Below, one piece after another: positions 1 to 55,059 of a DNA stretch of 64,000 nt. The notes beneath the pieces were generated by a model. The model did no database searches, was not told the DNA's origin, and worked only from the letters and a program-made list of their open reading frames with translations. Made by a program: the position numbers and the translations under genes. The DNA lies in assembly GCA_973895155.1 (NCBI GenBank), contig OZ316895.1, positions 19,022,508 to 19,086,507 on the forward strand, in the 5' to 3' direction. The number at the start of each line of letters is the position of its first letter. Position 1 is the first letter of the stretch. Source of the DNA: Marsupella aquatica (taxonomy: Eukaryota > Plantae > Marchantiophyta).

Positions 1-1954
1 GATAGTTATGATCGTAAATATGCGCACTAAAAGTAATCAAGTCTTTTGTGAGTCGTTTCATCACATCAAAACTTACCCAAGAACCTTCGAGACTTCCACC
101 AGGTTGCATTTGTCTCAAAAGATCGACGCCTGATCCATGGCCGATCGAAGTCATCTTGAATATGTGAGGACGGTCTTCTTGAGACCCTTGACCTGGTAGG
201 AGGTACCTTTGGAGGAAAGGTATGTTGACATTTCTTTGATACCGAACAAGAAAATCTAGTTCACCTCGACCTTTCTGGTCCTGTCTAACACTACGAAAGA
301 GGGACGCAAACTTCTGGGGTGTGGAAACTACCATGAGCGACTCAAATATCTCGGTTTCTTCAATATCTTGAATATCTTCCACACTTTCATACAAGGACTT
401 TACAAAAGACCCTGTTGCCACATTTTTTACACCAACAGGAGTGAAAATTGGATTTCCTTCCAATTTCTTTTTGATAACCTCCTCAACAATCTTCTCTGCG
501 CTCCAAGAAAACACCTTTCTTGAAGGATGGTTGTGCATCCCCATATGAATTGCCAAGCGGGACATGTGAGTACAGGTTTCTGAGTCAACTAGAAGCTAGG
601 GGTACATGTAAAATAACCTTGCTGGACAAGATTGGACACAAAACGGAACTTGATCACAAAATTGGCAAACAACTCCACCTTCGTCAAGGAAGGAGCCAAC
701 ACGATGTTGCCCGCCAAGTTTAGGGGTTCCACCCCAGGCCTTCTGGTTCCTCCTTTTCTTCCGTCGAAAATAGTCGCAAGTATTATTCCTACACTCAATG
801 GAACCAGTGCACATTACTTTACCAAATTCCCAATATTTCTTGGGATGAACATTAGCTGATGTAGGAAATATTCTGGTCCAGATGTAGCAATCCTTCGACC
901 GGTCCATGTCGCGTAGACGTGACCCCTTTGAAAGAGCTCCCGTAGGAGGCAACTCGAATACAATATTTCCATTGTATTTCTTTGGCAAACAACCGACTTG
1001 TTCATGGCAGAAGTCCCCAGCCGCGATGAACCTCGAGATTTCACTGGAACCAGTTGACTTGAGAATGGTATCCATTGCACTTCTCCGATACACAATGGAA
1101 TTTTTGGTAAAAACTGCTCTAACCTCCTGTTTAACAGGGGTAACCTCCTGTTTAACAACTGTGTGAGGGGGTTTATCACTAGACTCAGGCAAACTAGAAG
1201 GTCCATCATCGTCGCTATCTGAAAGCAAGACAACATCAACAAAGGGTTTGGATGAAGATGGGAGATCGGATTGCGGCGGCGTTGCTGATTGAGGGGTCTG
1301 CTTTTTGGGGGGCTGCTGTGGGAAGGGCATGGGTGCTCTCTTGATCGGTGTTATTTCCCTTCTTTGAGGGGGGGCTCTCCCTGGGGCTTTGATGCTCTCT
1401 TTTGTGCTTTTGGGCTCTCTTTGTGGCTCGCTAGTGTGCTATTGCTGTCCCTGTATTAAGGGCTGTTGTTCCCCCTATCCGTGGGGTCTTTCACGGTATT
1501 AAAATTTATAAAAAAAACCATTCCAAGGAAGATGGGAGATCGGATGCGACTGGTTTTCGAATGACAATAGAATACCGAATTCCTGCATTCAGGTGCCAAA
1601 AACGAATCCCGTCATCAACATCAAAAGAAGCAGTGAAATTAGAGGCTTCATCTCCGTTCCCCTCCTCCAAAATGTTTTCAATGTCATTCAAATCCAAACC
1701 AAAGCGCCCACAGAGATAATTCTCACTAACTTGCTTGTATACGTCATTGGCCGACAATGGAATGGATACAAGGTCACCCGTAGACGGACGCGTCAGAATG
1801 ATTGACCTCGACATTGTAAGATCATCCAACCCAAAAACACTCAGTTCACAATAATGAATGACGTCTTCGAATGCACACAATGGTATTCATAGTCAATAAT
1901 CCGTTTGTTAGAGCCGTTAGAATACGACAGAATCACTACCGGTCGAAACCACAT
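1..1954 (-). pseudogene. Mutator/MULE-like transposase, N-terminal part (WRKY/GCM-type zinc finger followed by start of a DDE-like domain); runs off the left edge
   Basis: ORF 596..1330 continues in frame past one TAG (596-598) to base 1: CTGSIECRNNTC...CQFC...CPARLFY...HMGMHNHP (WRKY-GCM1-type C/H finger), then IFKMTSIGHGSGVDLLRQMQPGGSLEGSWVSFDVMKRLTKDLITFSAHIYDHNY, where FD is the candidate first catalytic Asp. Upstream exon-like ORF at 1506..1880; candidate ATG at 1954. Confidence 0.6.
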
Positions 1955-2059
1955 CTGACACAATAAATGTTTTTTGTCGTTATGTCAACGACATTTACAC
2001 TAATGAGCCTAAGATGTCCATTTACGAAGACCATAATCATGTTTATTAAATCATCTTAA

Positions 2060-5000
2060 TTGAGTAGCGTCGGGCGCTACTCAAACATCATCACTCCAAC
2101 ATGGACCCAAAATGGTTCAATATATGTTTAGCGCCAGGCGCTACTCAAACCCACACCCTAAATTGTGGTATAAAACTGGAAAATTTTATCCAAAGTTTCA
2201 GAATAAATCCTAATGTTTGTAGCTATTTTCCAAATATTATCTAAAATTTTACCAAAATGTTCCCATTTAATATTAGCGTCGGGCGCTAATCTGAAACGGT
2301 AATCATGACATTCATTTAAGGCAAAATATTCAAAAATTGTATTCATTTTGTTTTTTATTTTATACTTTAGGGTCAATGTTGGCCTAACTTAGGGAAATTT
2401 TAGGGTTTGAATATTGATCGTTTTGGGTAGCGCCAGGCGCTACCATTGACCAATATCAGATTTGACCTAGGAATATAGATTAAAATAACCGAACTCTTCT
2501 TTAACGGTCATATTCAACGGTAACGTTAGGTCGCGTAACGTTGAAGATATGCCAACGGTATTCTAAACCACTAATCCAGAATTGACAAGTGGCGCTCAGG
2601 AGAATGTCGTAAATAGATATCAATGTAGCGAGTGGATAGTTTAGAGATGATACTCTCCCCACCTCCCTTGTCCGTTGTATTTAGGCTCCGTTTCGAAGGT
2701 TCTTTGTGCAAGAATTCTCTAGAAGAAGTACGGTACGAATGCGGTACTCAACACGATTGTGAAGCACTTCGTGTGTGGGCGAAACATGGACCCTCTCCCC
2801 ACCACCTCGCATGGGTATAGTGCTAACGGGCAGAGAGAGCAGATCCATTCCCAGACATCCGAGTGCTCGTTTTCTGGATCTATTTACAGTCGTCGTGTGA
2901 CACGGTCTACAGCATCCCAAGATCCTAAAACAATCACGGTAGTCACATTTCCGAAGAGCAGGAGAGCAAAGATGGACGATCTCGACACATACGCTGTGGA
3001 AGATCGAGGAGAACTGTCACTGACGATGTCCGACATTATCTCCAAGCACGTTATGGTGTTTGGCAAGGATTTTCGAGGGCACAACAAAGACCCCCCAAGG
3101 ATTCCAATGTGCCGCTTGGTTCACATGGAAGTTGTCCGCACCTTACAGAAGGGAAGTCCTTCAATTGAAAAGTTGAAGGACTCTTTTCGTAGCACAGGAT
3201 ACAACTCAAAAATTGGAATGTTGTTCTATGTCCAGCCGGCAGATTCGAATGGGAATGTCCAGACGTGTACTCCAGAAATTCGAGCGACCTAGGACCCTAT
3301 GTGGGTGGCCGAGAACGAGAAGTTTGAAGCTGAATGTGCGGCCGATCTAGACTTCATGGTGTTACAAGATAAGATGTTTTATGTTTTTGATGGTAACCAT
3401 CGACTTTACGCATGGTCGATCGTTTCGAAAGAAAATCCGAAAGATAGCAAGTATCACCCGCGTGTGCAATGTACTATCTTCAAGGGTGAAAAGGGATCTT
3501 TGATTGAAATTGAGGCAGCTATGCATACTGTGAACCAGTAAGTCTCTCTTTGAATTTCACCTATCCTTATCTTTTATAGTGTAGTTTTTACTAGCGCCTG
3601 GCGCTATTGACTGACAAATTCTTCTGTAGACTTGGACAGGCCGTGGTGGAACCTTCCTGGATACTTGATGCAGACCGAATTAAGATGATTTTGTCCAATG
3701 ATCTAGAATACTACAAATCAATCATCGATGGGGCAAACTTCAAGAAGTTTGGGCAGGTGATGCAGAAGACTCGAAAAGGATCGTGGTATTCCAAGAAAAT
3801 GCCTCAAGAAGCACTTCTATATATCTTATGCGAGAATAAGATTAAATCATATTCTCGACAATTCAAGATGGACATGGAGTCGGCTACCGCTCAGGGAAAT
3901 CCTTGGTCTCTGGAAGAGACATCCAAACGACATGCGGTCATGATGAAAGAAGCAACGAAGGATTGGGCGATCAAGGTCTCAAAGATCACTCCCTTGTTGA
4001 GTCCTGAGTTTGAAGACTTCATGACAACCTGTGCTAAGATGTATCCGATGACAGAGGTGAACAAACGCGAGAAGAAACCGGATGCGGTTGTTTGTACCAT
4101 GGATCGTGCCAGGTTATTTACAGCAGTCTCCGCCCTCGACCCCAAATTGAGGAGCACTTTGTTAGTAGCGCATTGCACGCCAGAGCTTAGGATCGGAAGC
4201 AGTTCTTTCATCCGCAAAGCGTTAGCAATGACCCTGTGAAGCAGTGGTGCCACACTTGGCAAACTTGGAATAGCGTGGAGGGAATTGCCATTGGTGCATG
4301 CAGATTGCCCTCCAGCAAATCAGTGAAATAATTCCTTCCAATCGATTGGAGGAATGGAAGTGTGAGTCTTATGATTCACTCGTTGAAATAGTGTGCAATG
4401 ATTTCAAAAAATTTGGGGATGCAGTGAAAGGTAAGTTTTTCAATACGATGTGGATGTCCAAGTACCCGGACAAGGAAGACTACACATTCAAGAATCAAAA
4501 GCGCGCGAAACGATATGTCTATCGTTTCTTCATGCACATGGAGATTGTGAAGCCTGACTATTTTTGGGCTTACCCAATTGCTTTCCAGAATTGGGTCATC
4601 TGCATAGATGGAGACATTTTGGCCGAACTGTATTCGATGTATCCCACTGAGGGTATACTTCCACCAAGGAAATTGTCCGAGTGGGAGAGAATTCACTGCC
4701 CTTGGTACCTTGACACCGACAGGTGGGATTCTCCTTTTAACGACACTGAGAAGGATGCTTTCCATAAACTGTCTAAATCCCAAGTTCCGAGACAATTTGT
4801 CTCCGACATGAAGCAAGGAATTGAGGGGGACGTCAACTCGTCGACGACTGAGTTGCAAAAAAAATGCAAAACCACAGTGGTTCATGTTGATCGAAGCCGT
4901 AAACCAAGAGCCAAAGCCAAGGCGGATGCCCCTGTGGCAAGTGCTAGTGCCAAGTCTGGGAAAAAACGTAAGCTACACCTCCTTCTTCCGACTTCCTTCT

Positions 5001-7871
5001 TTGTTAGCGCCTGGTGCTATCATGTGTCGTAAGTTTAATGTGTCTTATTTCCCAAAATTAATGTGGGTGTTTTGACAGCGCCTGGCACTAATACTCTTTC
5101 TGTGATTGACACCGTTTTTAGGTAGGTGGTCAAAAATCTGATGCCGCCACGGATGACACAAAAGTTGATGCAACACCAGAAGTCTCTGAGGCCAACACTG
5201 GTGCCAATCCAGACCCCATCACCCCCGTTGAGAAGGGAAAGGTTATAGTTCCTATGGATGCTACAAGCACAAAGAAGAAGAAGAAGAAAAGGACCATCGA
5301 TGTCTGGGAATCGTCGTGAGATAATGCTTCTGGGGCCGGTATCCAACGGGATGTGGGGACTTTCAAGACTAAACTCGGAAGACACTGTATGGTCAAATCA
5401 AGCTTGGCAGAATTCATTGATAGTGCATTTAGTAAGGAAGAGAAGCCAGATTGGGTCTCAGACGCTGAGAAGTGGGGTAAGGATTTGATCAAGTCGGGGT
5501 GTAGAGATAAAGGAATCATTTGAGGTGGGAAGGAACGATCATTTGGGGTGAATGCGGGTTTCATCTATCTCCCAACTGGTTTGAAACCCACAATTGTTGA
5601 CCGTCGGGTCCCGAAATGGAATGTCACAGACCACACAGCAGCCGAATCATTCTTTTGGGCGATGGACCCTTTCCTTTCCGATGACGGCATGCTCCATATC
5701 TTATACTCGGATGACCACGACCAGATTTCCCAGGTCATTTCTGCATGTTAGCAATCCAAGAAGTTCATGTGCATCAATACGCACAATGTTTTCATGTCTG
5801 TCCCAATGTACAGATCCAAGACAGATGTCCAGGTAAATGTTCTCTATACTAGTGCCCGGCGCTACTCTTTCTTTCTTAGTAGGTCTTCTCTCATGAATAA
5901 CAGATTTTTAAAATCCAGTTGGTTTGTCAACTTTTGCAGGTCTTCACTCTTAGACTGGATATATTTTGTCGGGTTTCTTTTAAAGGAAAGGTCCCAAAGG
6001 ATCCAAGATTCAAGCCGTTATCTAGCGCTGAAGATCCTTCAATCTCAAACCTTATTGGGCTACAATCTTTGAAGGAAGATCATTGTCCTGAACTCCATTT
6101 TACTGGGAATTCTCGACTACCGGTTGGTTTTATGCAAACTGTCCTTGAACTCTTTACGATACCTAAGGATATTGTAATTGATTGGACCGTCGGCTCAGGT
6201 AGTACGTTCATTGCTGGGGATTACTCAGGCTGTTTTGTCATCGGGTTAGAAAATCGTCGGGAGTTTGTTGAGACCGCTTCAAGGATTTTTTTGGATCTCA
6301 TTTCTCCCAAACCTTTGGAGACACAACCTCCCCCTCCTCAAATAACCGGACGGAAAAAGAAAGATAGACTTAGATCTGTCCTCAATTTTGATTCGGACGA
6401 AGATGATGGGACGCCAGAAGATGATGTTCCTGAGGATGTAAATGACGGCGGGAAAGAGGAAACCCGACATGATGGGTCAACGGAGGACAGCGAAGAGTCT
6501 TCCGAGTAATTTTTGTCTCTCGTAAGCTCCTTTATCCTTTCAATTGTTGGCTAACCATCAATTCCACCGGTTCTATCTGTTAAGTACTTACTTCCTCTTT
6601 CTCTTCCGATTCTCTTTTGAGCAGATCAGAATGGAACCAAAGAAAACGGTTTCAACTCCGGAGGAAAGTGGCTCAAAATGTAATCATCACTCCCGAGAAG
6701 CCGTTTGTGTTGCCATCATACGCTGAGAACGTTACGAGGAAGGTAGAGAAATTTAGAACGCTCTGCTGGGAAACAAAAGGACTTAGGCTTCTTAGGGGAG
6801 TAGACAGGAAGTTCATGAGGAACCCCTACATAGATGATGTTTCTAGAAGCAAGTATATTGATGATGAGGCAGAGTCGACCGACAGATCTCATAGCTCCCA
6901 GAATGAGAGCTCAGAATATGACACTGAAGGGTAGCAATTTTCTCCTCTATCAGGTCAAACTTCCTCCCAACTGTACAAGTATGCCCTTGGTTTTTGTTAG
7001 CGCCGGGCGCTATTGAATTTATTAAATATGAATTGAGTTTGATGGAGGTTGCCCCTTCCATTCAATGGTTAATGTGGTCTTTAGTAACGTCCTTTGTGTG
7101 GGTTCCTCTCCTTGTTTAACTAGCGCCCGACGCTCCCCAAAAAACACGTTTGAAGTTTCCGTTTGATATTTGTCGTTTCCGCCATAGTGTCATTTGGCTT
7201 TCAGTCGGCGACTGGTACCGTCAAGAGGACCAATAACAGGAAATCCAAGCCCCTTGTAAACATACTATTGTTTCTTTCAAAGTCCATTGCTCTCGTTCTT
7301 CTCCTTCTCGATTCCATGGAAGGCCAGTGTATCGACGGCCCACGAGAGCATATGTCAACTTCCGATTAGATGGTTTCCGCCATGATCCAGATCATCAGGA
7401 CGCTGGGATTGATGATGACTATCACTCTTTGAGCTAGGGCATTGTACGAGGAAGCACCCACCGGGAGTATTAGCGCCTGGCGCTAGTTACAATTGCACTG
7501 GAAACTTTAGTGCTCCTATGTAGCAATATTTGTACATCAAGGACAATATGTTTCACTTAAATAAAAAAGCTCGGGTTTCTTTTCTTTCAATTTCCCGTTA
7601 GAAGTTATGACTCAGATACCTTGGTTAAGTCCTACTTCTGTGCTTTGATATTGAACTTAGACTATTAATAATCTTTGGTTTCTACTTGGATCTCAGCCTG
7701 AACATCAATCCTATGTTCTCATGATTTTCTCCACAAAGCATTAGAAGCGGCCGGCTCTAGTATTCGGCATGTTTGGGCGATTAATGTTTCATTATTTTGG
7801 GTTCAAACACCCGGCGCTAGTATTCATTATGATGCGTTTGTGATTGTTTTGCCTGTAGACTCCCGGCGCTA
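2060..7871. repeat. Dispersed 15-bp palindrome TAGCGCCNGGCGCTA
   Basis: Full or near-full copies start at 2065, 2129, 2274, 2428, 3592, 5005, 5076, 5850, 6998, 7121, 7471; partial copies near 7747, 7808, 7860. Confidence 0.92.
2786..6934 (+). pseudogene. Multi-exon gene: N-terminal ParB/Sulfiredoxin-like domain plus C-terminal beta-class N6-adenine/N4-cytosine DNA methyltransferase-like domain; disrupted by stops and frameshifts
   Basis: ParB-like: IPMCRLVHMEVVR...IEKLKDSFRSTGY...FYVFDGNHRLYAW. MTase-like: GFIYLPTGL...FFWAMDPFLSDDGMLHILY and LPVGFMQTVLELFTIPKDIVIDWTVGSGSTFIAGDYSGCFVIGLE. Frame-preserving GT-AG introns at 3538-3629, 4968-5125, 5833-5939, 6506-6624. Confidence 0.7.
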
Positions 7872-8699
7872 GTATTTGGCATCGCATAATTATCAGTATT
7901 TTAGGAACGGGTTTTTTTAATTTTGCCACAATACCAGGAGAAATGTGCTCCCAAAATAGGAAATTTTGCTGTTACCAGTTCCTGTTATAGTTTTCTGTTT
8001 GTTGTTTACTGCCTTTTGTAAACACCTCTTGATGTGGAGGAGTCTCGTGGTTGGCATGTAGTTTTACCATAGCTCACCTAGAGTTTGAAGGATGGAGGGT
8101 ACTAAAATAGAGTTTAGTTTGGATGCACATGGGGCCTTTGAACAGCCGGCAGTAGACGTTGTACATCGGGGCCAGGGGACGAGGGAGTACATCCCCTTGA
8201 TAGTGAGACAGACTTATGAGGGAGAGGTTGAAGCTGACATGGACGAAGATGATGAGTAGTTGGATCTGTTTTGTTGTGAGTAGGTGACTCTTTGAAGTGC
8301 AATGAGTAGCAAATATGAGCAATAAATGGATGACTGGTTTGTGGAACTGCAATAACTTGGTGAGTAGGATGCCAGACAAAAATGGCATGTGTGAGTATGA
8401 GAAGCAGGTTATGAAACACCAAGCACGGGTTCAACAATGTGTTGCAGCCTATTGGGTGATGTGCAAGAGGCTATTTTGGATATGTAAGGGATTGTGCATA
8501 GTATGAGCTATATGTATATCTCGTTGTGTGCATATGTTCATTGTGTACTAGCTGCTTCTATAATGGACTATTACATCATAACTTGTTTTGAATTTCATGT
8601 TGGTGTTGCAGTAACAAAAGTATCCCAACATTGAAGAAGCGGAGTCATTGTAGACGAAAGACCTTTTGTAATCCTGACGGACCTAGGCATGTAGTGAGA

Positions 8700-11600
8700 G
8701 GTTGACTTCAAAGTCTCCTATTTCAATGGCTGAATCTCTTGATAAGAATGAGGTAGAGGATTGCATGCCTGATGTTGGTGATATAGAATACGATCATGAC
8801 CAAGATCCGAATGCAAGTGCTAGCACGTTAGAGGATGATGACATGCCAAATCCTATCCCTCCACCAAAGCCTACTTGCAATAAGGCAACTAGGGGGACTT
8901 CTATGAGATATTGGCTGACGCCCTCTGTATACTCAACCCAAGCCCCAAGCAACAACAATAATTGCAATAACCCGCAATTTACTGCGCACAACTATAACTG
9001 GCCGCAAGCACGACAGGGGGCAATAACTATGGCGGGTCTATGGGTGTAGGCCCTTTTGCCAGCTATATGGGTCTGAGTTGGCCAAGTAAGCAAGAACATT
9101 TTAATTTGTTTGATGTGGACAAGTGTATTTTGAGGTCAAATTGGTTGATCGCCTTCCTCAATAGAAGTGGGTTTGAGTGTCACAGTTTGCCATGTCTAAT
9201 GTGAATTGCAGATCCAATGTGGGGCCGTATGCAGCCCACAAATATGTATGAAGAGGGTCAATGGGGCCATCGGGGAAATTCATGGGAGGTCTTGTCCCAA
9301 TGGGACAAGATGGCAAGGTTATGGTGGGTACGGTGGGAACCCAATACCAGCACCAGCACCAGCACCTTCAATCCAACTAACAAAAAGTCTGCGGAGGGGA
9401 GGAGGTAGTTTCTACAACAGATCTAAGTAAAGTAATGAAATCAGGTAGTTGACATAGACCATACGATATTAATGGTGTTAATTGCGTTTCTCTTTACAGA
9501 TAACCCTATCACACCCCGCCAAGGCCATGGGGGAGGAAGTCCTGGATTTGCAACACCAAGTAGTGCATCAGGGAGCACTGGGAGAGGTGAGAGTGTGAAG
9601 TTGGGTACTGTTGAAGTTGATGATGAAGGCCGGATAACAACAATGAGTGCTGGAAGAACGGATGGCGACAACCTGCAAATGGAGTGTCTACGGTGGTTGG
9701 ACATTAGTTGTACTACTAACTTTAATTGTCAGCATCCTTCTGACTGGGAACTGGTTTGCAAATATATGCGAGACAAGTGGGAATATTTGGGGAATTCTGG
9801 GAAAGGGGTCAGTGTTGATTGTCTTGTAGAGTATGGACAAACTATTATGAAAATAAAGAGGCACCGATTGCACAAAGCATGGATTGCTGATGGGAGTAAA
9901 TCACATGCTAAAGCACCCCCAAGTGTTCATGTAGAACAACTACTAACTTTAATTGTCAGTGTCCTTCTGACTAGGAACTGGTTTGCAAATATATGCGAGA
10001 CAAGTGGGAATATTTGGGGAATTCTGGGAAAGTGGTCAGTGTTGATTGTCTTGTAGAGTACGGACAAACTATTATGAAAATAAAGAGGCACCGATTGCAC
10101 AAAGCATGGATTGCTGATGGGAGTAAACCACATGCTGAAGCACCCCCAAGTGTTCATGTAGAACAATGGGCTCCACCGAGAGGCACATTCCTGTCTAGGG
10201 CGGACAATAGAAGTCTACACAAATGATTGCTGCTAGAAGTGAAGTGAAGAATCCTACGCTTACAAGGAGGGGAGGACATGCACCAGTAGTAGCCAAATTG
10301 GTTGGGTTCCCATGCCATACATATCCGTATTTACATTTCAATATGGAGTTGATTGTATGTAGTTGTGCAGCATGGTACCTTTAGGCAAGATTGACATTGA
10401 TAAACATGTCTTGCAATGTTAATGTGCTCCAGAAAAAGCTCACTAGAGAAAAACCCACACAAGAGGAGGTTGTGGTAGAAATCAAAAGGGTAAAGTGTGA
10501 TGAAGGCAACATTGGATCTAAACAGGTAATTTAGGAGCATGTTTGACAATCTGTTATATAGTCTTTCTTCATATGTACAATATTGTTAGCCCTTATGCAA
10601 TTGTTAAATTGCTGAGCTGTTTGGTTGGTTTATGTGATATATAGCAGAGAGCAATGTCTACCCTTACAGAGATATCAGACCGGTTGAAGACCGTGGAGAA
10701 TACTTGGCCTGATGTAGAGATTGAGATCAAGAGTCAATTCAAGGACATAGCCAGTCTGCTTCAAAGCCAAGGATCAACCTTGTGAGTTGCGAGCAATGCA
10801 CACTGCTAGCAGGGTTGAGCACCCAATTGCACATCCTTATGAAGAGGCTGCAAATATTGTGGAAGTTGTGGCTACAAAGAAGAGTGGTACGTGTCATCTA
10901 AAATCATGTTTAGTGTACTACGACTTTACCTACAATTTGAGGAAGATTAGCAGGATGGTTCATATATAGAAGGTTCAGGTTTTGGATTTTCAAGGTTTGT
11001 TACATTGTGCATCAGGTGATCAGATTGCAGTGGCTGTAGTAGATCCAAAGATCGTAGAACCTGGTACAACTATCATTGAGAGTAAGTAAATGTTGGTTTT
11101 CAGAAGACTCTGTTTGGTTGGTTAATGTGGTTAACAATTGTATGCCATTTACGTTCAATTAGTGCACACTTGATGGTTTGTTTACAACTTTAGTGCCTAT
11201 ATGCTTACTTGTAAATGAAGGAATTTGTGGCTACTATTGAGGTATTGAGCCAGCACAGGAGGAGGTGCACATACCAAATCCAACAGGTAGGAAGAGGAGA
11301 CAAAATTTAGAGGCTACCAAATTTTCAGATTTGCAGGAGAAGCAGAGTGATGAGAATGATGTGGTTTTCATTGACTCTCAGCCTCCCCTAGGTATTGGAG
11401 ATGAGTTTTCTCAATCCCCACCACTGATGAACATGGAAAAGATGAGGACCAAAAACAATGGAAGGAGACTTTGCCTTACAAGGCACCAAAGAAGAACTTG
11501 AGGAATATTAATTCTCCAAAAGGGACAGCAGTGAATATTGTAGCATAGTCTTCTAAGCTCACGGCAACTGATAATTCTGGTGTTTGTGTTGGGCAAGGCA

Positions 11601-11800
11601 TATTGCAAATTGAAGCAAGTACTTTCCATGGAAAGAAGGTACTTGTTGATCATGTTGTGCTATTGTTGATTGCTGTCAGTAAGCCAAAATATCTTCTAGA
11701 TACCCTTTCCAAACAAGGGAGATGACCCTCCACACATCCATCTTGTGGATGGTGTGGAATCATTTGTGATGTGGCCAGAGAAATTTGTAGAGTGTTAGGT
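8700..11800 (+). pseudogene. Degenerate CACTA TnpA/Transposase_24-like gene remnant
   Basis: Fragmented ORFs (QMECLRWLDIS...DWELVCKYMRDKWEY...KIKRHRLHKAW...PPSVHVEQW...MIAARSEVKNPTLTRRGGHA) lie upstream of a CACTA terminus. Family call is by resemblance only. Confidence 0.4.
9713..10166. repeat. 227-bp tandem duplication (2 units)
   Basis: 9713-9939 is repeated near-identically at 9940-10166. Confidence 0.95.
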
Positions 11801-12059
11801 ATTGGCCAAGTACAATTTGAGACTCAAATGTTATGAATTGTTTCAATATATGGCTCCAATTTCGAGTATATGATCTTGTGTAATACTATATCTTGCTCAT
11901 ATTGTCCTTGATATCTTGCTCATATTGTGAGTATTGTTACCATGATTGTTAGTTGGATTTGTGCGCGCTTTTGTGACTAGCTTGGCATGAATGACTCTGG
12001 AAAATGAATGGCATCATTGTCTACGGAAACTATGGTTTGCGGTCAAATCAATGTTACCA

Positions 12060-12323
12060 ATCACTCATGGAAAACCCCATATGACTCGAACTAAGTCATT
12101 CTAAACACTTATGTTTGACAGATGTATGGTTCCAAATACTTGACCCTCTAGTCACTAAAATGACTAATGACACTAGTCGATAATATGACTAAGTCAATCC
12201 AAGTCACCACTTTTACGACTAATAGTTGCAAGAACAACGTCATTGATTTTCAGGAATAGATGACCGGTTTTAGTCATAGTCAGTCATTTTTAATGGTTAA
12301 AAATGGGGATATTTCTACTAGTG
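12060..12323. mobile_element. CACTA (En/Spm) right terminus with subterminal repeats
   Basis: ATTTCTACTAGTG at 12311-12323 is the reverse complement of CACTAGTAGAAAT; clustered ATGACT/AGTCA motifs precede it. No partner end found. Confidence 0.7.
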
Positions 12324-13075
12324 AATACATCCCAGATGCCTCCACATTCGTTGAAGTAGCCTACACACAAGAATTTTCTGACACAGTATCCACATGTCTA
12401 TCCAAAGACCTCTCAGATGAGGAAGTAATGTTCAACTTTGTAGACTATAAGTTAACCACGAAGTCAATGAGATGTTTGTCTGAAGGGATAACATCAACTA
12501 ACTAGCTACATTCAGATATCATCGATGCATACTATAAACTGGAAAAGTAAGTAGTAGAAATAGTTTAGGAAACTTTAACCAGAAGTTAGTGTAGTAGGGT
12601 ATTTAAGGATAGACAGGAGCGGTAAGCGGGCTTTTTTATGTCAATTGTTGAAAATGGCCAAAAGGCTGGTAGTAGAAAATGCGACTATTCTTGCTATATG
12701 GGAGAATAGGGTTTTGCTATGAGGGATGCGACATGAAACTAGAAGATGGTAGGAACTGTGCCTTAGGCGGGGCCTAGAGCGAGACAAAGGAGGCAGGTGA
12801 GGATGGAGCAAGCGAATCCCTTTGGTAGGAATCAAGACGTTCATACATGCAAACCAGTTGGAGAAGGGATACCCATGTTCATGTTCACCATTGGCATCAA
12901 GGGAGGAAATTGTTGGGTATGGAACAAAGCAGGGCAACAATTATTTGAGATGACTGGCAAAGCCTTCCAACACTGTTTCACCACTAAGGAAGCCGTCAAA
13001 GAGTTTTGTCAAGGAGTCATGTCAAGGAAGTGGAATTCGGTTTTAGGTCAAGAAAATGAATTGCGTGGCACTTAA
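12324..13075 (+). pseudogene. Ulp1-like (C48) protease N-terminal fragment followed by RPA70 C-terminal OB-fold-like fragment (transposon cargo relic)
   Basis: VMFNFVDYKLTTKSMRCLSEG...N*LHSDIIDAYY resembles the start of Ulp1; MFMFTIGIKGGNCWVWNKAGQQLFEMTGKAF resembles the RPA1 C-terminal domain. Confidence 0.35.
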
Positions 13076-13544: not shown

Positions 13545-14149
13545 CTCCCCCTTGGTTGGATGATAAGTGTTTTACAACCAACCACAGGATAGGGGAAGCT
13601 AACCCTATGGCGTTAATTCTGTGATCTGGCCCAACGTAGTATGGTCTCATTAAAACCATGCTTCAATCATGGAAAGAGTGCCACTACTATAGCATGAGTT
13701 TGGGTCCAGTTATTAAAGGTAAATCCTTATAGTATCTAAAGGATGCATGAAAAAAATGCTAAGGTGTAATATATATATATATCTATACTAATGTATATGT
13801 CCATGAATATGTTTGAGTACTCATGGTCTGTGTTTATACTTAAAGAGCTATCTACGCGCCTACCCTAATCCTGCGGGCCGCAGGTCAAACGCCTCCAGTC
13901 GTCGGTCTGTTCCATTGGTGGGCCGCTGACATCTTTTGAATCTTTGGTCATTCGGTGGTCGATGCGGCCGAGTCGGGAGGTCGTCGTTTGTGTATTGGGA
14001 GTGGGCGTTTGCATGTCATCGGTTCTGTGTGATTCTCGGTGGTTCTCGGTGGCAGGTTGGGCAGCACATTATGTTGGGGCTCCTGTCAGGTCAGTTGATC
14101 AGCAGCAATGGGCGTGCCATGCGGGTAAGCTCCTTAGGAGCGGTCATCA

Positions 14150-15583
14150 TTCTTTTCCTTGTAAAAGTAATGCCATACTTTGCAGTCCTATTCCATAAGC
14201 ATGTTTGCGGTGTAGGGATGGTGGGAGCAGTTTGGTGAACAAGTCCGCGCGATTACCTTTACTTGGAATCCATTGTACTTGGACCTGTTTGCCATGCTGT
14301 TCGTGAGTGAAAAAGAATTTGGGTGCTATGTGTTTGATTTTGTCCCCTTTAATAAATCCCTGAACTATCTGCTCAACGCAGGGTCGATTGTCTTCGTATA
14401 TAGTTGTCGGTTTCTTGAGCTGAGCTCTGCCTGTGTGTGTGTATGTGATCTATCAGGTTTCTCAACCAGATACATTCCCTAGTGGCTTCACAGAGTGCTA
14501 TTATCTCGACGTGATTTGAGGAGGTCGCTGTGAGTTATTGTTTGCTGCTTTTCCAAGAGATTGTCGTGCCACCTTGTAAGAAGACGTATCCTGTTTGGGA
14601 TTTTGCATCGTCTGGGTCTAAGAGGTAGCCCGCGTCCGCATAGCCGGTCAGTATGTTTTCTGAGTTCTTGGGGAAGAATAGCCCCATGTCCATTGTATTG
14701 CGTAGGTATTGGAACACCCGTTTGACTCCATTCCAGTGTCGGATCGTGGGGTTGGAGCTATGGCGAGCGAGGAGGTTGACGGCAAAAGCGATGTCGGGGT
14801 GCAACTGGGTTGCCAGGTACATCAAGGCCCCAATGCCGAGAGGTATGGTTTCTTAGGGCCAAGAATCTCCTCGGTCTCTACTCGTTTCTTGAAGGTGTCC
14901 CTCGTGGGGTCTGAAGATCTCAGGTCCATGGGAGTGCTGACCAGGTGGGTGGATGCCATGTTAAATTTCCACAGCGCCTTCTCAGTATATGTTGATTGGT
15001 TGATGATGATTCCCTTCTGCAAGTAGTTAAATTGTAAGCCCAAACAGTATTTGGGCTTTCCAATGTCCCTCATCTCAAATGTCTTCTTCAGAATTTCAAT
15101 CGTCTTGTGCGTTATCGTTGTTGTACCAAAGATGTTAATGTCATCTACATAAATTGCAATGATAACAAATTCATCTGCCTCCTGTTTGAGAAATAAACAA
15201 GGGGCAATATTGTCAGTATTGAAGTTCAATGCAAGCATTTTAGCTTTAAACCGTTTGTACCAAGTTTGTCCGCTCTGTTTTAATTCGTACATTGAACGGA
15301 GGACTTGGACTGCAAGTTCTCTTTTAACTCATTTCGCCTATGTAGCAGCCGTAATTGGTGGAGGAAGCATTTGTTTCCTCAGGTTGGATGTGGGAAGCAC
15401 ATCTAGTGGCATCGGTTCTGCAGGTCCAAGCTCGCTCGTCGTTTCATCCAAATTGCCTATAGGGCCGGTTTGTGGTAGGCCCGGTTGTAGACCGCGGTCT
15501 ATGGTACCAATTTTCTCTCCCTCGATCTGGAACGCTATTCTTTTAATCAGTTCTGGGGGTGCCTTCATGTATATTGTGGTATC
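14150..15583 (-). pseudogene. pol: Element A pol: RT C-terminal part and RNase H
   Basis: MYELKQSGQTWY, IAIYVDDINIFG, LTGYADAGYL, IYEDN, ADLFTK; stops and frameshifts present. Confidence 0.9.
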
Positions 15584-15842
15584 TGTTGAGCATAGACGAC
15601 GATCGCAACGGCAAGCCCATGAACCATCCAACGCACAATAGTCGACACAAGAGATACGTGGTTCACCTCCTTGAGGCTACGTCCACGGGAACACACAAGA
15701 GAGCTTTACTGAACTCTAAGCCCGTCGGCTATACCGAGTCTCCACAGTGTACGCTCTCCCTATCTCTCAAGTTGCTCCATAACAATGAGCCTTGGTTCTA
15801 CTTCTCCAAGCACACATGCCTCTTATGATATAGTGTGCAACT

Positions 15843-15967
15843 TAGTTGTACCTAACCACATAGTTGTACCTAATCACGTAGTTGTACCTAACCACATAGT
15901 TGTACCTAATCACGTAGTTTTACCTAACCACATAGTTGTACCAACCCACGTTGTTGTACCAACCACG
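15843..15967. repeat. 18-bp tandem array (7 units, TAGTTGTACCTAAYCACR) in U3 of B-family LTRs
   Basis: 7 units in the LTRs at 15584, 21007 and 21516; 5 units in the LTR at 31310. Confidence 0.9.
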
Positions 15968-16194
15968 TCATACCTAACCTAGACGTAAGAGTAAATACCC
16001 AACAATCTTCCCCTTGACTCTGGTCTAGGGGAGAGTAATACTGCCAATGTATATGATCCCTCAGCGGGAAGTTCTGGACAGAAACCAAACCGGTTTCCCT
16101 CTCTAACTAGAGCAAACCAGAACTAAGCCGTAGCCTAATACATAGGAATGAGGAAGAGCATATATCAGTAATTACAATGAATGTTAAGAAAACT

Positions 16195-19100
16195 CTACTT
16201 GTGATGCAATTGCAAAACCTGCAATACGTCACGGTGTCTAGAGAAACTCTCCAAAGGAATCACTTTGGTAAATGCGTCAGCCGGGTTAAGTTTACCATCA
16301 ATCTTGACTAGCTCAAACAAATTATCAGACACAGCCTGCCTGATAAAATGGTACCTGACATCAATGTGCTTCACTCTGCTGTCCATCACCTGGTTCACAG
16401 CAAGGTGGAGCGCACTTTGACTATCACAATGGAGCTTCACATTCCCCTGTGGCAATCCCATTTCAGTGATAAGTCTATCCAACCAAATCGCTTCCTTTGC
16501 TGCTTCCGCAGCTGCAACATACTCCGCTTCTATAGTAGACTGAGCAATACACTTCTGCAAAGTAGACCTCCAACTTATGCATCCACCGCCAAGTGTGAAC
16601 ACGTATCCTATTGTTGATCTCCTTCGGTCCAAATCTTGTCCATAGTCAGAATCTACATAGCCAATCAATGATCTAGCATTCTTTGCATTTGCATCAAATA
16701 AAAGACCATGATCCACGGTACCCTTCAAGTACCTGATAATCCACTTCACTGCTTCCCAGTGTACCTTCCCTGGATTCGACATGTACCTGCTCACCTTGCC
16801 CATAGCCATGGCAAGATCAGGTCTAGTGCAAGTCATCAAATACATGAGACTCCCCACTGCCTTGTCATATGGAACCTTTGACATCAACCCCTTCTCTGTG
16901 TCATCCGTAGGACAGAACGCTGATGATAACTTGAAGTGTGGAGCCAACGGGGTACTTACTGGCTTGCTATTCTCCATGTTGAACCTTGCAATTACCTTCC
17001 TCGCATAACTGCTCTGCGTCAACCATAGCTTGCCAGCCTCCAAGTCCCTAGTGATCTCCATACCCAAAATCCTCTTAGCTGGCCCTAAGTCCTTCATCTT
17101 AAACTCTGCACTAAGCAGTGCCTTGAGCTTAACAATCTCAGACCTATCCTTGGCTGCAATTAGCATGTCATCCACATAAAGTACTAAAACAATGAACCCA
17201 AAGACAACATTCTTCACCGGTTTCAAATACACACAAGGGTCAAATACACTTCTGTGAAAACCTTGTGACCGAATCCAATCGTCAAACCGCTTGTTCCACT
17301 GTCTTGGTGACTGCTTCAACCCATACAAGGATTTCAGCAATCTGCAAACCAATTCCTCCTGTCCTCTCTTCACAAAACCTAGCGGTTGTCTCATGAAGAT
17401 CACCTCTTCCAATGTGCCATAGAGGAAAGCTGTGACAACATCCATCTGATCTAGGAGCAGACCAAACATTACAACAAGTACACACAATAGTCGTATTGTA
17501 GAGTACTTAGCAACTGGTGAGAAGACCTCATTGTAATCCACACCTTTCTCTTGTGTGAATCCCTTTGCTACCAATCTAGCCTTGTAGACCTTCGATCCAC
17601 CTCCTATGGAATTATCCTTCAGCTTGTAAATCCACTTGCTGTCCACCACTTGCTGACCCTTAGGCAGCTTAACAAGCTCCCAAGTTTTGTTGTCCTTTAG
17701 TGACTGCATCTCCGTTTGCATTGCTGCAATCCACTTCTGCTTCTCCTTTGAAGCACTTGCCTCATGAAATGAAGAAGGTTCTCCTTCTTCCAAAATTAAC
17801 GCATCACCCTCATCATCAGCTGTAAAATCATCCTCTTGCAGTTGAGATGAATCAACCCACTGTCCATACCTTGATGGAGCGCGTACAGTGCGACCAGATG
17901 TTCTTCTAGCCGATGACTCCGGTTGATCTGCGTGTGCTGGTACAATTTGAAGCTCAACAGCATCCACTTGCTGCTCACCAGCATCAACAAACTCCTCTGG
18001 TTCCTCTGGCATAGGAACCAGCTCCATAATTGGAGCAACTCCTTCTCTCCGGTCATGCACCTCATAACCAATCTCCCCCTCAACGAGATCCAGGATAGGA
18101 GATTTTCCTTTGTCAGTACGGGAGACCTGAGTATTCTCCCCCTCCTTCAATAATCTGGATTCATTGAAGGAAACATCCCTACTGACAACGAGCTTACAGG
18201 CAATAGGATCCCATAGCCTATAGGCTTTCACACCACTCTAGTACCCAAGAAAAACACATTTCCTGGAGGTAGGATCCAACTTGGTCCTATTCTGCTTTGG
18301 TGTTAGAGCATATGCATCACTTCCAAAAATTACCAAGCCATGATAGTCTGCTTGCCGCTTATAGCGCATCTCAAATGGCGTTTTGAAATTGATAGCACTA
18401 GAAGGAGAAAGATTTACCAAATAAGCTGCGGTATTGACAGCTTCTGCCCAAAATTCTTGTGGTAAACCTGATTGGCTCAACATACTCCGTGACCGCTCCA
18501 ACAATGTCCGATTGAGCCTCTCAGCGACACCATTCTGCTGCGGAGTATAAACTGTGGTGAGATGGCGAGTTATCCCCTGTTCTGAACAGTACTCTTCAAA
18601 TTCCATTGAAGTGTACTCCCCGCCGTTGTCTGACCTCAGACTCTTCACCCTTGTATCCAAACACTTGATCGTGTTTCCAGTCTGATTCTCCACCTGGGCC
18701 TTCCACTTCTTAAAAATGGACAAGACATCAGACTTATGCGTCATGAAATAAATCCACACAAATCTTGAGTAATCATCAATAAATGATACATAGTACAACT
18801 TTCCAGAGTGTGAGGGAGTCGGGGATGGACCCCACACGTCACTATGTATGTACTCAAGAACCGCTTTGGAACGATGAGTTCCAACACCAAAAGCACGACG
18901 ATGCTGCTTTCCAAGAATGCAATGCTCACAAAACTCTAATTTACAAGATTGCAAATCAGAAATGAGTCCATTCTTCCGTAAGATAGCCAAACCCTTCTCA
19001 CTCATGTGGCCTAGCCGTGAATGCCACAGTTGAGTCATCTCCTCGTGAGACTTGGTTACATTGGCCTCTCCATATACAGTATTGCCCTGTAACACATACA

Positions 19101-20475
19101 AATTCTTTTGTCTACTCCCCTTCAAAATCACTATCTCTCCCGACCTGACTTGAAGTTCACCATCAATAACGCTCCATTGATGACCATTTGAATCCAACAC
19201 ACCGAGTGAAATCAGATTCTTACGCATGCCAGGTACATACCTGACTCCGGATACTGTGCGCACAGGGCCATCAAACATTTGAATCTTCACAGACCCAATT
19301 CCCTCAATTTGACAGGAGTGATCATTTCCCATCAGAACTGAACCGTTTGAAACAGAGTAAGAACTGAAAAACTCACGAATGTAACAAATATGAAAAGAGC
19401 AAGCACAATCAAGAATCCACACATCATCTGCTCTCCTAGATGACGTGCACAGGGCATACCCCCGGCTTCATAAAACATACTCATCATTGAGTAAATCAAC
19501 TTCTCCATCAGCCCTAGCCACATTTGCCGATGAAGTTTCCGCTGCCTTTCCCTTACAGTCTTGCTTGAAGTGTCCAACTTGGTTGCACTTCCAACATGTC
19601 ACCTGCCTCCTCTGAGGGGATTTACCCTTGGACTTAGATCTGGATTTAGATCTAAACTGGGTTCTACGGTCCCCAGTTGGTCACTGCATACTCCTCCCAC
19701 GGTTAACATTGAGGGCAGCACCAGATGATGAAGGCTGTGACGTGATGTGCATCTTCTGCTGAAGATCATCACTAAGCAGAGAACTTACCACGTCATTGTA
19801 TGAAATGGTATCCCTATCACGATGCAACAACACTCGTGATAGGGACTGGTAAGATGGAGGCAATGAACTAAGAAGTTGCAGAGCCTTCGTCTCATCATTC
19901 AAAGTCTTCTCAAGGTTTTCCAAGTCAACAACCATGTCGTTGAAAGCATCCACATGGTCTTGCAACTTCGTACCAGATTCCTTCATCCTGAAACTCATCA
20001 GTTTGTAGGAAGTGTAGAGCCGGTTCGACAACTCCTTGCGGTGATACTTGCTCTACAATTCCGCAAACAAGGACATGCAATCCTTATGTGCACCCAACTG
20101 CTTGATGATGGGAGGCATGAGATAGAGTGTAACACACCACACTCCCTGCTCCTGCATGCGGTCCCATTGTTTCTCATCAACATCGTCTTCACGAGGGCTC
20201 AGCAGTTGGCCCATCCCTGACGCATAAAGCACTCCCTTCACCTGCTTCTCCCATAGCAAGTAGTCAGAGCGCCCATCATACTTTGTCACTTCATACTTGG
20301 GTCCCCCAAGCTTGAAAGTCCCCATCTTCTTCTTTACCGTGAGCTCCGGTAGTAGTACTGCTTCCTCCACCACACGCCGCACCGGTGATGGTATCGGTGT
20401 CACGTGCTCTTCCTCCTACTCCTCTCTCTGCCCCTGAAACCTCCGCGGTGATCCTCGTGCTTCAAGTTCCACGTC
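16195..20475 (-). pseudogene. gag-pol: B1 gag-pol (Gag, zinc knuckle, protease, integrase, RT, RNase H) with premature stops and deleted start
   Basis: ORFs 20053..20403, 19681..20031, 18238..19422 (HSRLGH, CEHC, HSDVWGP, RSDNGGEY, GVAERLNRT) and 16195..18231 (KARLVAKG, YVDDM, YVDSD, ADAFTK). Confidence 0.95.
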
Positions 20476-21427
20476 TTGGGAACCTCCCCCGTTTTGACCA
20501 CCTCAAGGAATAACCGAAATACCAAGTACAACCCGTTGTCGGAATTGCAATGTGATTGGTGCGCTGCATTGCCAACTTCAATGGCTTGTCAACAACGAAT
20601 GTTGATCAATTGCACTTGGTGCCGTCACCAAGTCCAACAAGGTAATTGATTTTGCTTAGCCTTCCTCTTTGCATCAAAGAGCCAATCCCGGACTCAAAAA
20701 CAATCGTCTTGCCTCAATCTCTCCGTTGAGTCAAAACACTTGACGCTTCTCCCTCCGAGTCGATTGCCAACTTTCTTCACAAAATCCAGAAGGACAAAAA
20801 CTTAGATCTCTCTGCACCACGAGCTCCGTTCAACGATTTCTTCACACCATTAGAAAGCTCTTGCCCTGATCTATCCGTTGAGCCCATAAACTCCAAGTTC
20901 CATGCGATGGAACTCTGGAAAATCCACCAACACTCAACGCTGGAAAAACCGTCATGAAATCCCGTCACGAACACACGTCACCTCCCAAGCATGCTCTGAT
21001 ACCAATTGTTGAGCATAGACGACGATCGCAACGGCAAGCCCATGAACCATCCAACGCACAATAGTCGACACAAGAGATACGTGGTTCACCTCCTTGAGGC
21101 TACGTCCACGGGAACACACAAGAGAGCTTTACTGAACTCTAAGCCCGTCGGCTATACCGAGTCTCCACAGTGTACGCTCTCCCTATCTCTCAAGTGGCTC
21201 CATAACAATGAGCCTTGGTTCTACTTCTCCAAGCACACATGCCTCTTATGATATAGTGTGCAACTTAGTTGTACCTAACCACATAGTTGTACCTAATCAC
21301 GTAGTTGTACCTAACCACATAGTTGTACCTAATCACGTAGTTGTACCTAACCACGTAGTTGTACCAACCCACGTTGTTGTACCAACCACGTCATACCTAA
21401 CCTAGACGTAAGAGTAAATACCCAACA

Positions 21428-21515
21428 GTATCTAGGATACCATACAGATAGGTTGTGATCACATCTAGTGTGTGCATGACGAGCTTATGCAAGAGGGTAA
21501 ATGCAATGAGGTACC
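21428..21515 (-). pseudogene. pol: Element A RT segment stranded between B1 and B2
   Basis: Translates YLIAFTLLHKLVMHTLDVITTYLYGILDT (DVxTAYLYG motif), joining YSPVMDSITYR at ~31700 to TIYMKAP at ~15580. Confidence 0.92.
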
Positions 21516-22126
21516 TGTTGAGCATAGACGACGATCGCAACGGCAAGCCCATGAACCATCCAACGCACAATAGTCGACACAAGAGATACGTGGTTCACCT
21601 CCTTGAGGCTACGTTCACGGGAACACACAAAAGAGCTTTACTGAACTCTAAGCCCGTCGGCTATACCGAGTCTCCACAGTGTAAGCTCTCCCTATCTCTC
21701 AAGTGGCTCCATAACAATGAGCCTTGGTTCTACCTCTCCAAGCACACATGCCTCTTATGATATAGTGTGCAACTTAGTTGTACCTAACCACATAGTTATA
21801 CCTAATCACGTAGTTGAACCTAACCACATAGTTGTACCTAATCACGTAGTTGTACCTAACCACGTAGTTATACCAACCCACGTTGTTGTACCAACCACGT
21901 CATATCTAACCTAGACGTAAGAGTAAATACCCAACAATCTTCCCCTTGACTCTGGTCTAGGGGAGAGTAATACTGCCAATGTATATGATCCCTCAGCGGG
22001 AAGTTCTGGACAAAAACCAAACCGGTTTCCCTCTCTAACTAGAGCAAACCAGAACTAAGCCGTAGCCTAATACATAGGAATGAGGAAGAGCATATATCAA
22101 TAATTACAATGAATGTTAAGAAAACT

Positions 22127-25100: not shown

Positions 25101-25404
25101 TTACCCTTGGACTTAGATCTGGATTTAGATCTAAACTGGGTTCTACGGTCCCCAGTTGGTCGCTGCATACTCCTCCCACGGTTAACATTGAGGGCAGCAC
25201 CAGATGATGAAGGCTGTGACGTGATGTGCATCTTCTGCTGAAGATCATCACTAAGCAGAGAACTTACCACATCATTGTATGAAATGGTATCCCTATCACG
25301 ATGCAACAACACTCGTGATAGGGACTGGTAAGATGGAGGCAATGAACTAAGAAGCTGCAGAGCCTTTGTCTCATCATTCAAAGTCTCCCCAAGGATTTCC
25401 AAGT
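22127..25404 (-). pseudogene. gag-pol: B2 gag (3' part) and pol, with ~450-bp deletion in the integrase C-terminal region
   Basis: ORFs 24947..25402, 24311..24931 and 22127..24277; the junction TTVYTP|NLVEGE at ~24020 lacks B1 18090-18540. Confidence 0.93.
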
Positions 25405-37100: not shown

Positions 37101-38128
37101 GAGTTGACTCGGTCCGGGGAAGGTAATCTGTCAGACGAAGGACCGACGGCAGTGGCTGCGGGGGAAGCGTTGGGGGCATCCATTGAGGATCCACCACCGG
37201 TGTCATGACGGTGCAAGGGCGCCGTTCCTTTTAGGAAGGGCGGACGTGGAGGTAGGAGGCGTGAGTGGGCAGGGCGGGCTCGGATCTCCAAGTTTAGGCT
37301 GAGGATCAGGACCAGGAGATGGCCCTAACACTTAGATTAGTGGGATTGCGGACCCACTGGTAGGAGCAACACTTGTACTCTTGCCTCGCTTTACATAGGT
37401 AGATTGCAGTTAGGTAGATTACAAATAGGATAGATTAAGCTTACGCTGCTAAGAATTGGCGGATCCACTACCAGGATAAGTACCTGGGCAGCGGGGAGTC
37501 CAGGGCCTCTTCTTTAGCAAGTTTTTAGTTGCGCCAGCAGGGCTGGGATCAAGTAGTAAGAGAAGCTCTCGGTTAGTTATACAGTGACCCTTGTGTATAT
37601 TCATGTTTCCTCATGCCTAAGAGCTGAATATAGTTGGCCTCACGGCTTAGTTCGCAGAACTTGTGTATGAGATGTACTGTTTGTATGGCAAGTGCATGGT
37701 ATAACTCAGTCAGAAGGAGTCATTTTGCTATTTGTGTGTCGCATTAACTTGTGTGAAGAGTGCCCACATCAACTAATAGATGAAGGGAAGTAAGCAAAGG
37801 AGTGAGAGTTGGATGTGTCGAGCTGAGAGAGGTCTTAGCGGCTTAACCAAGCCAATTGGGGATCATTCCGGCGGCAGAATCCAAATATACCTAAACAAAA
37901 GGAGGGGAATACAAGGGAAGGCCTAGATTAGGCCGGCTACGTATCTCATGACCCGATGAAAAATCTGTCCAGTATATGTGTGTAAAATGTTAATAGTAGT
38001 AGTAGAAGGAAGTTAGCAGCGTCCCATGCCGCTAAGCCGCAGAAATGGCCTCGCCGAGGACAAAACCTACGGGAATCGGCCTGCGTAGGGGGGTTTCTTG
38101 GGTTTGGGGAGCCATGGGACGCACCACA
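34105..38128 (+). mobile_element. Element Y2 (4024 bp), inserted in X
   Basis: Same ends as Y1; TSD ACTTG (34100-34104, 38129-38133). Confidence 0.93.
34220..37208 (+). pseudogene. Y2 large ORF, frameshifted, coiled coil deleted
   Basis: ORFs 34214..34468, 34481..35743 and 35358..37208. Confidence 0.8.
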
Positions 38129-54990: not shown

Positions 54991-55059
54991 CCCCATGAGT
55001 CAAGTCCCAAGCACCCAGCCACGTGGGCATCAGCAATGAGACCCCTCAAACGTGCCACC

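Follow-up and report, generated by a model that had tools for sequence, protein, structure and literature searches.

Why would a transposable element in a liverwort genome carry a gene that joins a ParB-like domain to a DNA methyltransferase-like domain? The question is raised by a stretch of 64,000 nucleotides of Marsupella aquatica (contig OZ316895.1, positions 19,022,508 to 19,086,507; hereafter "the window"), near the start of which such a fusion gene lies opposite a transposase gene. Established here are the structure of the gene, the fusion of its two parts, its conservation, its multi-copy state, its adjacency to the transposase and the presence of a dispersed palindrome in the non-coding DNA around and within it. 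Reasoning by analogy with known systems, we give about an even chance to the reading that the fusion protein is a self-recognition module of a repeated, likely Mutator-like (MULE-type) DNA transposon, predicted to bind the element's own DNA, to mark or occupy it and so to protect it from silencing.

A conserved fusion gene on a repeated element

The fusion gene occupies 2786-6934 on the plus strand (ATG at 2786, TAG at 6934) and consists of five coding blocks separated by four GT-AG introns. Exon 1 (2786-3537) encodes a disordered N terminus followed by a likely ParB/Srx (sulfiredoxin)-fold domain (~3101-3537), exon 2 (3630-4967) a conserved all-helical middle region and the start of a Lys-rich linker, exon 3 (5126-5832) the linker and the catalytic half of a beta-class methyltransferase, exon 4 (5940-6505) the S-adenosylmethionine (SAM)-binding half and an acidic tail, and exon 5 (6625-6934) a C-terminal tail with a short block common to relatives in Riccia. 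Introns 1 to 4 lie at 3538-3629, 4968-5125, 5833-5939 and 6506-6624, and the sequence and its translations keep the frame across all four, as the original prediction had proposed; intron 2 has two close acceptors, of which 5125 preserves the frame and 5121 loses it. We infer the splicing of the four introns from their splice signals and from homology. The position of intron 1 is conserved in the family: 50 of the 120 relatives reaching the junction stop within 3 residues of it, as would open frames that run into an unspliced intron, and GTAAG stands at the same codon as the intron 1 donor in all three homologous metagenome loci (L001-L003). A diverged contig present in runs X1 and X2 jumps over 93 bases at window positions 5028-5122, with GT..AG ends; it may be a copy with a different intron or show an alignment gap, and this joint (5029-5121) was not accepted as splicing.

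The further expectation that intron removal would leave a single open frame did not hold. Exon 2 carries frameshifts near 4190 and at 4294-4298, across which homologous proteins match frames 1, 3 and 2 successively; at the same places high-depth contigs of runs X2 and X3 differ from the window by a 5-nt deletion in the contigs at 4190 and a net +1 in them at 4294-4298. Two candidate extra introns, 4362-4424 and 4431-4588, were rejected, as neither restores the frame and homologues continue through both. There are also four in-frame stops, at 3290, 5317, 5521 and 5749, the last three in exon 3 and the first replacing a Trp found in 47 of 51 aligned sequences. With two frameshifts and four stops the window copy is a pseudogene, as had been predicted.

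We identified 226 relatives by scanning 1.84 billion representatives with exon 1 and part of exon 2 (E<=0.001), of which the best 150 were used. Names were looked up for 30 proteins, 28 of them from the fusion family, transposases aside (two in the first 20 and two in the last 10). Riccia sorocarpa, Calypogeia fissa and two Adiantum ferns are the sources of the relatives that carry a species name. Read through its breaks (1,223 positions, with X at each break), the window protein is collinear with R1sor_027256, an uninterrupted 1,207-aa model from R. sorocarpa, at 27% identity over 1,099 columns (E 1e-84). The methyltransferase part has 26 matches, all in R. sorocarpa and spread over 8 contigs of distinct length, and in three cases the two halves of the gene fall in adjacent Riccia locus tags (001605/001606, 020454/020455 and 024500/024501). 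By these alignments this is one conserved fused gene, not two separate ones, and it forms a large, multi-copy family dispersed in Riccia. The original prediction had named three outcomes that would undermine it: no ParB or Rossmann methyltransferase fold, transcription of the halves as separate genes, and homologues that are single-copy host genes unlinked to the transposase. None of them occurred; we found a weakly recovered ParB fold, a full-length fusion in Riccia and multi-copy relatives.

Several narrower searches returned nothing. A word-based search for exon 1 among longer proteins recovered no relative in 4,677 candidates, a miss of sensitivity, since the full scan gave 226; 95 pattern matches in viral contigs likewise included no relative. 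A fourth metagenome locus, L004 (65% GC, weak), was dropped when tblastn did not confirm it. A tree of 84 ParB-domain sequences, midpoint-rooted and built without a support test, was not used for claims about origin.

Facing the fusion gene, on the minus strand, is the 5' half of a likely MULE-type DDE transposase (1-1814; ATG at 1814, exiting the window on the left), which includes a Cys/His-rich N-terminal region and the first catalytic Asp. The two start codons are 970 bases apart, so that the genes stand head-to-head, as predicted, and share the upstream region at 1815-2785. This transposase too is broken, by a stop near 596 and a frameshift near 1487, which appears as a 2-nt deletion in other copies and also as a frame change by tblastn. 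Its 13 relatives are 25-70% identical, and in 7 of the 8 that reach the second catalytic Asp, a region outside the window, (C/D)xxH follows at +26 or +29. The published rule for MULEs places (C/D)xxH 15-45 aa past the second D, a feature they have in common with hAT elements (PMC5499845), and the motif points to MULE/hAT. Curated transposase collections (Pfam, NCBIfam and PDB) gave no match to the window transposase. Since the motif is a mark of MULE and hAT alike and curated models find no match, assignment to the MULE superfamily is likely, not proven.

Both genes lie in repeated DNA. All 30 bins of window positions 1-8000 are covered in all four runs by 127-1,813 contigs of 80-100% likeness, where summed contig depth is not a copy number, and this region belongs to a repeat family. 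The transposase is part of the same repeated unit, and the fusion gene is thus transposon-borne, as had been proposed. The right non-coding end of the element runs from 6935 to 8028 and includes degenerate repeats at 7745-7877. A contig of run X2 departs from the window sequence at 8028 and continues for 1.2 kb, and the repeat that starts at 8031 has another left neighbour in X2, X4 and X6, with roughly tenfold greater depth in X6; for these reasons 8028 is likely the right end of the element, inserted into another repeat.

The ParB-like and methyltransferase-like domains

The N-terminal domain carries the DGNHR motif at 3389-3403. Profile searches barely detect its family: neither a Pfam search of exon 1 for ParB nor an exon-1 profile search against PDB sequences gave a match, Pfam on 51 members yielded DndB for 2 and DUF1015 for 2 (all E>=0.07), and a PHROG ParB-like match was obtained for 3 of the 51, with a best E of 0.003. 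For fold searches we used the predicted model of P0032, a Riccia relative with 33-36% identity to the closest exon-1 relatives; built from a 72-sequence alignment, it has a mean predicted local distance difference test score (pLDDT) of 75 and is confident beyond its disordered start. Foldseek against PDB placed ParB-CTPgS (7bnr) in the top row at E 0.17, and a further Foldseek search placed phage ParB proteins first at E 1.3e-3. The VIA fold search was headed by KorB bound to cytidine triphosphate (KorB-CTP; Z 8.0, 136 aligned, root-mean-square deviation [rmsd] 4.5), followed by PadC (Z 7.4, 99 aligned, rmsd 3.1) and pNOB8 ParB-N (Z 6.5, 102 aligned, rmsd 3.5); sulfiredoxin scored Z 6.0. Model residues 173-443 are those covered by the KorB match, and a conserved helical region of ~350 residues follows the N-terminal domain.

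The Gly and the Arg of GNHR are conserved in 46 and 44 of 51 aligned sequences, respectively, and a distal Asn in 48. We take the family's GxxR and distal Asn to correspond to ParB residues. Because the three fold searches, each weak, all place ParB-family proteins first and because GNHR and the distal Asn are conserved, the N terminus likely has the ParB/Srx fold, and the prediction of such an N terminus is borne out to that extent. The accompanying proposal to check the protein against ParBc (PF02195) and N6_N4_Mtase (PF01555) ended with a Pfam match for the methyltransferase and none for ParB; ParB-family proteins came first in the fold searches.

The C-terminal part of the protein is, by sequence, a beta-class amino-methyltransferase domain (PF01555). 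SAM-binding motif I, DIVIDWTVGSGS, lies at 6168-6203 and the acidic motif IGLE at 6240-6251, both as described in the original prediction, which had also located DGNHR correctly. Exon 4 matches PF01555 at E 6.5e-7 and 30 bits, above the curated cut-off of 26.7, over model positions 163-219 of 221, a match confined to the SAM-binding quarter. In a PDB search its best matches are the beta-class DpnA, MboIIA and CcrM chains, and in a PHROG search it matches methyltransferases. A profile of 21 Riccia sequences and a phage methylase can be aligned through both halves of the domain, in the beta order (probability 83%, E 9e-6), with the Riccia D[LM]P[TS] opposite the phage DLPY; catalytic motif IV is N-terminal to motif I, and the window copy aligns at the same positions. 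Phage methylases are the best sequence matches of the methyltransferase part. Among named Atlas clusters the nearest consist of phage N6_N4_Mtase proteins, of which several carry ParB_N; their scores of 0.82-0.83 serve as a lead only. For the prokaryotic ancestry put forward in the original prediction, the support is similarity of this kind. The predicted model of the methyltransferase domain has a mean pLDDT of 35.

The prediction of a beta-class enzyme thus stands for motif order and SAM loop and fails for the catalytic motif, which is non-canonical. In the window copy motif IV reads YLPT (5566-5577), and in 22 relatives it reads DLPS (9), DLPT (4), DMPT (4), DMPS (2), DMSS (1), DLSS (1) and DVPF (1), the last in the fern protein P0150, the sole one with an aromatic residue. 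In N4CMT, modelling indicates that the motif IV aromatic residue stacks on the target base (PMC10406627). Most Riccia copies retain the Asp, a Trp further downstream, the SAM loop and the acidic residue that follows this loop. That methyl transfer persists in intact proteins seems to us possible, with somewhat less than an even prospect; if it does, the Asp-led motif IV leans toward N6-methyladenine (6mA) over N4-methylcytosine (4mC).

Non-coding palindromes and the role of the protein

The element carries a dispersed 15-bp palindrome, TAGCGCCNGGCGCTA, at 2065-7819, which is a candidate binding site. The original prediction had overlooked it, although it offers the best lead to a mechanism. 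At up to 2 mismatches there are 11 copies, against 0.06 expected, all within 2065-7485 and none elsewhere in the 64 kb; at up to 3 mismatches there are 13, against 0.96 expected, all within 2065-7819. All 13 are non-coding, in a region where non-coding positions make up 31%. Four lie between the genes (2065, 2129, 2274 and 2428), one in intron 1 (a perfect copy at 3592-3606), two in intron 2 (5005 and 5076), one in intron 3 (5850) and the remainder downstream, including 6998, 7121 and 7471. CG and CHG are frequent in the sites, several variants of which differ by C-to-T or G-to-A at CG, the pattern expected from methylated DNA. The centre of the palindrome is CCNGG, a common type of cytosine-methyltransferase target.

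Two related loci have other repeats in the same place. Intron 1 of L001, a locus ~37% identical in exon 1, contains two copies of a different inverted repeat with 8-bp arms and a 7-bp spacer (883-905, perfect; 978-1000, one mismatch), and intron 1 of L002 contains an 11-base half of the L001 repeat. The introns themselves span 839-1063 in L001 and 698-802 in L002. Two of the three loci therefore fit family-specific sites, which is a hint from sequence comparison and a lead for co-evolution of site and protein.

We infer palindrome binding, CTP-clamp spreading and anti-silencing from ParB-parS, KorB, VANC and the red-algal PAG3. ParB proteins load on inverted repeats and then slide (PMC7333895). 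By the same logic, the ParB-like half of an intact fusion protein would load at the 15-bp palindromes of its element and would likely spread along it; the methyltransferase-like domain, brought along in this way, would then mark or occupy the DNA of the element. An element so marked or occupied would likely resist silencing by host cytosine methylation. A more specific form of this proposal, which we consider unlikely, is a working ParB-parS system in liverwort and fern transposons, with a CTP sliding clamp on family-specific intronic palindromes that writes 6mA or 4mC. Here the non-canonical DxP(T/S) would be an active site, each transposon family would have a private epigenetic mark, and that mark would counter host silencing by 5-methylcytosine (5mC) and co-evolve with the site.

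A number of observations weigh against self-recognition by binding and marking. The fold scores are individually in the range of chance, with no Foldseek row at E<=0.001 and unrelated models reaching the best Z, and the Pfam ParB family is found in 0 of the 51 members. ParB binds CTP via GERRxRA and requires N112 (PMC7333895). The family's [DE]GNHR has one Arg, without the full GERRxRA arginine patch of ParB-type CTPase clamps, and ~45 additional residues precede GNHR; on both counts a CTP clamp can only be conjectured. A single-Arg GxxR resembles that of non-clamp members of the fold, such as sulfiredoxin. A helix-turn-helix was not demonstrated in the P0032 model, whose helical part was not folded alone. 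Of the 22 motif IV sequences, 21, all from Riccia, have no aromatic residue and depart from the canonical (D/N/S)-x-P-(Y/F/W). Intron 1 of L003 and intron 4 of the window gene have no such palindrome, no contig among those listed spans both genes, and the transposase could bind the palindrome instead.

The main rival keeps self-recognition and supposes that the liverwort methyltransferase is dead and serves as a reader or shield that binds either SAM or bases that are flipped or methylated. It is suggested by the 21 of 22 motifs of the form D[LM][PS][TS], by the short target-recognition stretch between the methyltransferase halves and by the inactive transposon-borne methylase domains described in DIRS1 elements (PMC4738411); we nevertheless hold it doubtful, as most Riccia copies keep the residues listed above, the fern copy has DVPF and the phage DLPY is one change away. 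The mark could also be repressive, with the element holding down its activity or copy number through self-methylation, in the manner of bdelloid N4CMT on silent transposons. 4mC is indeed concentrated over transposons in Adineta, and the palindrome core CCNGG is near CCSGG, named as a target of the nearest bacterial relatives of N4CMT (PMC8885841). Yet motif IV opens with Asp, unlike the Ser of SPPY/TSPPY 4mC enzymes, a selfish element benefits less from silencing itself, and the placement of the motifs in introns and between genes fits the sites of anti-silencing VANC (PMC5735166), so that we regard self-repression as very unlikely.

Quite unlikely, in our estimate, is the reading that the palindromes are transposase-binding or subterminal repeats, with the fusion protein serving transposition (by end pairing or DNA bridging) or acting on host targets. 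In its favour, the Cys/His-rich region of the transposase is itself putatively DNA-binding, palindromic and tandem motifs are found at MULE ends (PMC5499845), and the degenerate copies are concentrated by the right end; set against this, three of the four introns and the stretch between the genes contain copies, well inside the element and up to 6 kb from the observed end, and L001 has its own palindrome in the same intron. A captured host gene, carried as a passenger without a role in the manner of Pack-MULEs, would fit the pseudogene state of the window copy and the fragmentary nature of many Riccia models. That origin is highly improbable, given that liverworts, ferns and other relatives, at 30-50% identity, have conserved both the sequence and intron 1, that copies are dispersed and divergent, that algal transposons share the architecture and that no single-copy host parent appears among the 30 proteins looked up.

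The locus brings the transposon-borne ParB-methyltransferase class into land plants and onto a likely MULE-type element. New with it are a candidate site, the palindrome dispersed in introns, and the observation that liverwort copies have lost the catalytic aromatic residue. It also supplies material for tests: an uninterrupted gene in a sequenced liverwort, divergent copies and a candidate site that differs between families. If clamping and marking are true, they would add to VANC a second and unrelated route to anti-silencing and would place a ParB clamp on eukaryotic chromatin; they would also be a locus-specific source of 6mA or 4mC in plants and possibly a tool for spreading a DNA mark over chosen targets. 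Even a dead enzyme would leave a conserved pseudo-enzyme module in need of explanation.

Neighbouring repeats and comparison with known systems

Beyond the right end, window positions 8031-12420 form a separate second repeat, of high depth in all four runs, with decayed plus-strand coding blocks (e.g., 9439-10230) and a private 227-230 bp tandem duplication at 9712-10165. None of its frames tested has a Pfam match; it may itself be a DNA transposon that received the ParB-methylase element by insertion. Nested pieces of Copia-type retrotransposons occupy 14100-25423 and 31614-33142 on the minus strand, and an 18-bp unit is repeated in tandem at 15822-15979. Three long frames (25466-28682, 34469-37208 and 42116-45743; two plus, one minus) are related to one another, contain coiled-coil and Ala/Glu-rich sequence and are likely accessory frames of a long terminal repeat (LTR) retrotransposon family, and frames of long interspersed nuclear element (LINE) type (endonuclease, reverse transcriptase and ORF1-like) were recognized by eye at 48842-56514 on the minus strand.

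Transposon-borne ParB-methyltransferase genes are already in print from algae. The Ectocarpus element Sola1-1_Ec32 carries a 1,104-aa gene with ParB-like and N4C/N6A methyltransferase domains on the strand opposite its transposase, and its authors propose, from sequence, a class of accessory proteins that bind and modify their own element (PMC12477816). Because the same fusion on a DNA transposon has been described there, our finding is less surprising than it would otherwise be. As here, both domains are in one protein of similar size, opposite the transposase and inside a repeated DNA element, and we liken the two by architecture; no algal name occurs among the 30 proteins looked up. Sola1-1_Ec32 differs in its host (a brown alga), its Sola-1 transposase, its 4-bp target-site duplication and its 21.5-kb length, whereas the present element is from a land plant; its transposase has MULE/hAT-type motifs, its introns contain dispersed palindromes and its motif IV is non-canonical. 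For land plants, the literature searched contained no report of such elements; it did not extend to Iyer et al. 2011, cited for green-algal cases, or to the supplements of the red-algal preprint, either of which could mention them. In a separate paper, Iyer et al. describe methylases fused to ParB-HTH (helix-turn-helix) in chlorophytes and chytrids and few N6A methyltransferases in land plants (PMC4738411).

The red-algal Plavaka, Mutator and Zisupton elements have a PF01555 gene and a ParB gene next to inverted-repeat arrays (10.1101/2025.02.11.637652). The Plavaka accessory genes PAG2 and PAG3 resemble our fusion in placing a PF01555 methylase and a ParB-like domain on DNA transposons, and they move between superfamilies including Mutator; the best HHpred match of PAG3, 7BNR, is also the best Foldseek PDB row here, and the inverted repeats are proposed as the ParB site, as we propose for the palindrome (10.1101/2025.02.11.637652). 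There the two are separate genes, ParB joined to a 2-oxoglutarate (2OG) oxygenase and the methylase to SET, with the inverted repeats arrayed in tandem next to PAG3, whereas here the domains are fused and the palindromes single and dispersed. Among phages, ParB_N + N6_N4_Mtase fusions have the same two domains in the same order, but they are ~400-500 aa long, without introns and without the long helical middle region, and the family's ParB profile did not match the one phage fusion protein tested.

Two further eukaryotic systems invite comparison. VANC, encoded by Arabidopsis VANDAL elements, binds family-specific motifs in the introns, intergenic and terminal DNA of its own MULE and lifts silencing (PMC5735166); like our gene, whose carrier is likely a MULE too, it is a second gene of its element and is associated with short motifs in non-coding DNA. 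Its motifs are 8-9 nt long, non-palindromic and tandem, unlike the dispersed 15-bp palindrome here, its removal of methylation was shown experimentally, and the parts of PMC5735166 available report no ParB or methyltransferase domain in it. Marchantia DN4MT1 and bdelloid N4CMT share with our gene the beta-class order and an intron-bearing eukaryotic gene (10.1101/2021.02.12.428880, PMC8885841, PMC10406627). Both belong to the host, have (T)SPPY and are proven to produce 4mC, whereas the liverwort family is transposon-borne, fused to a ParB-like domain and characterized by D[LM]P[TS].

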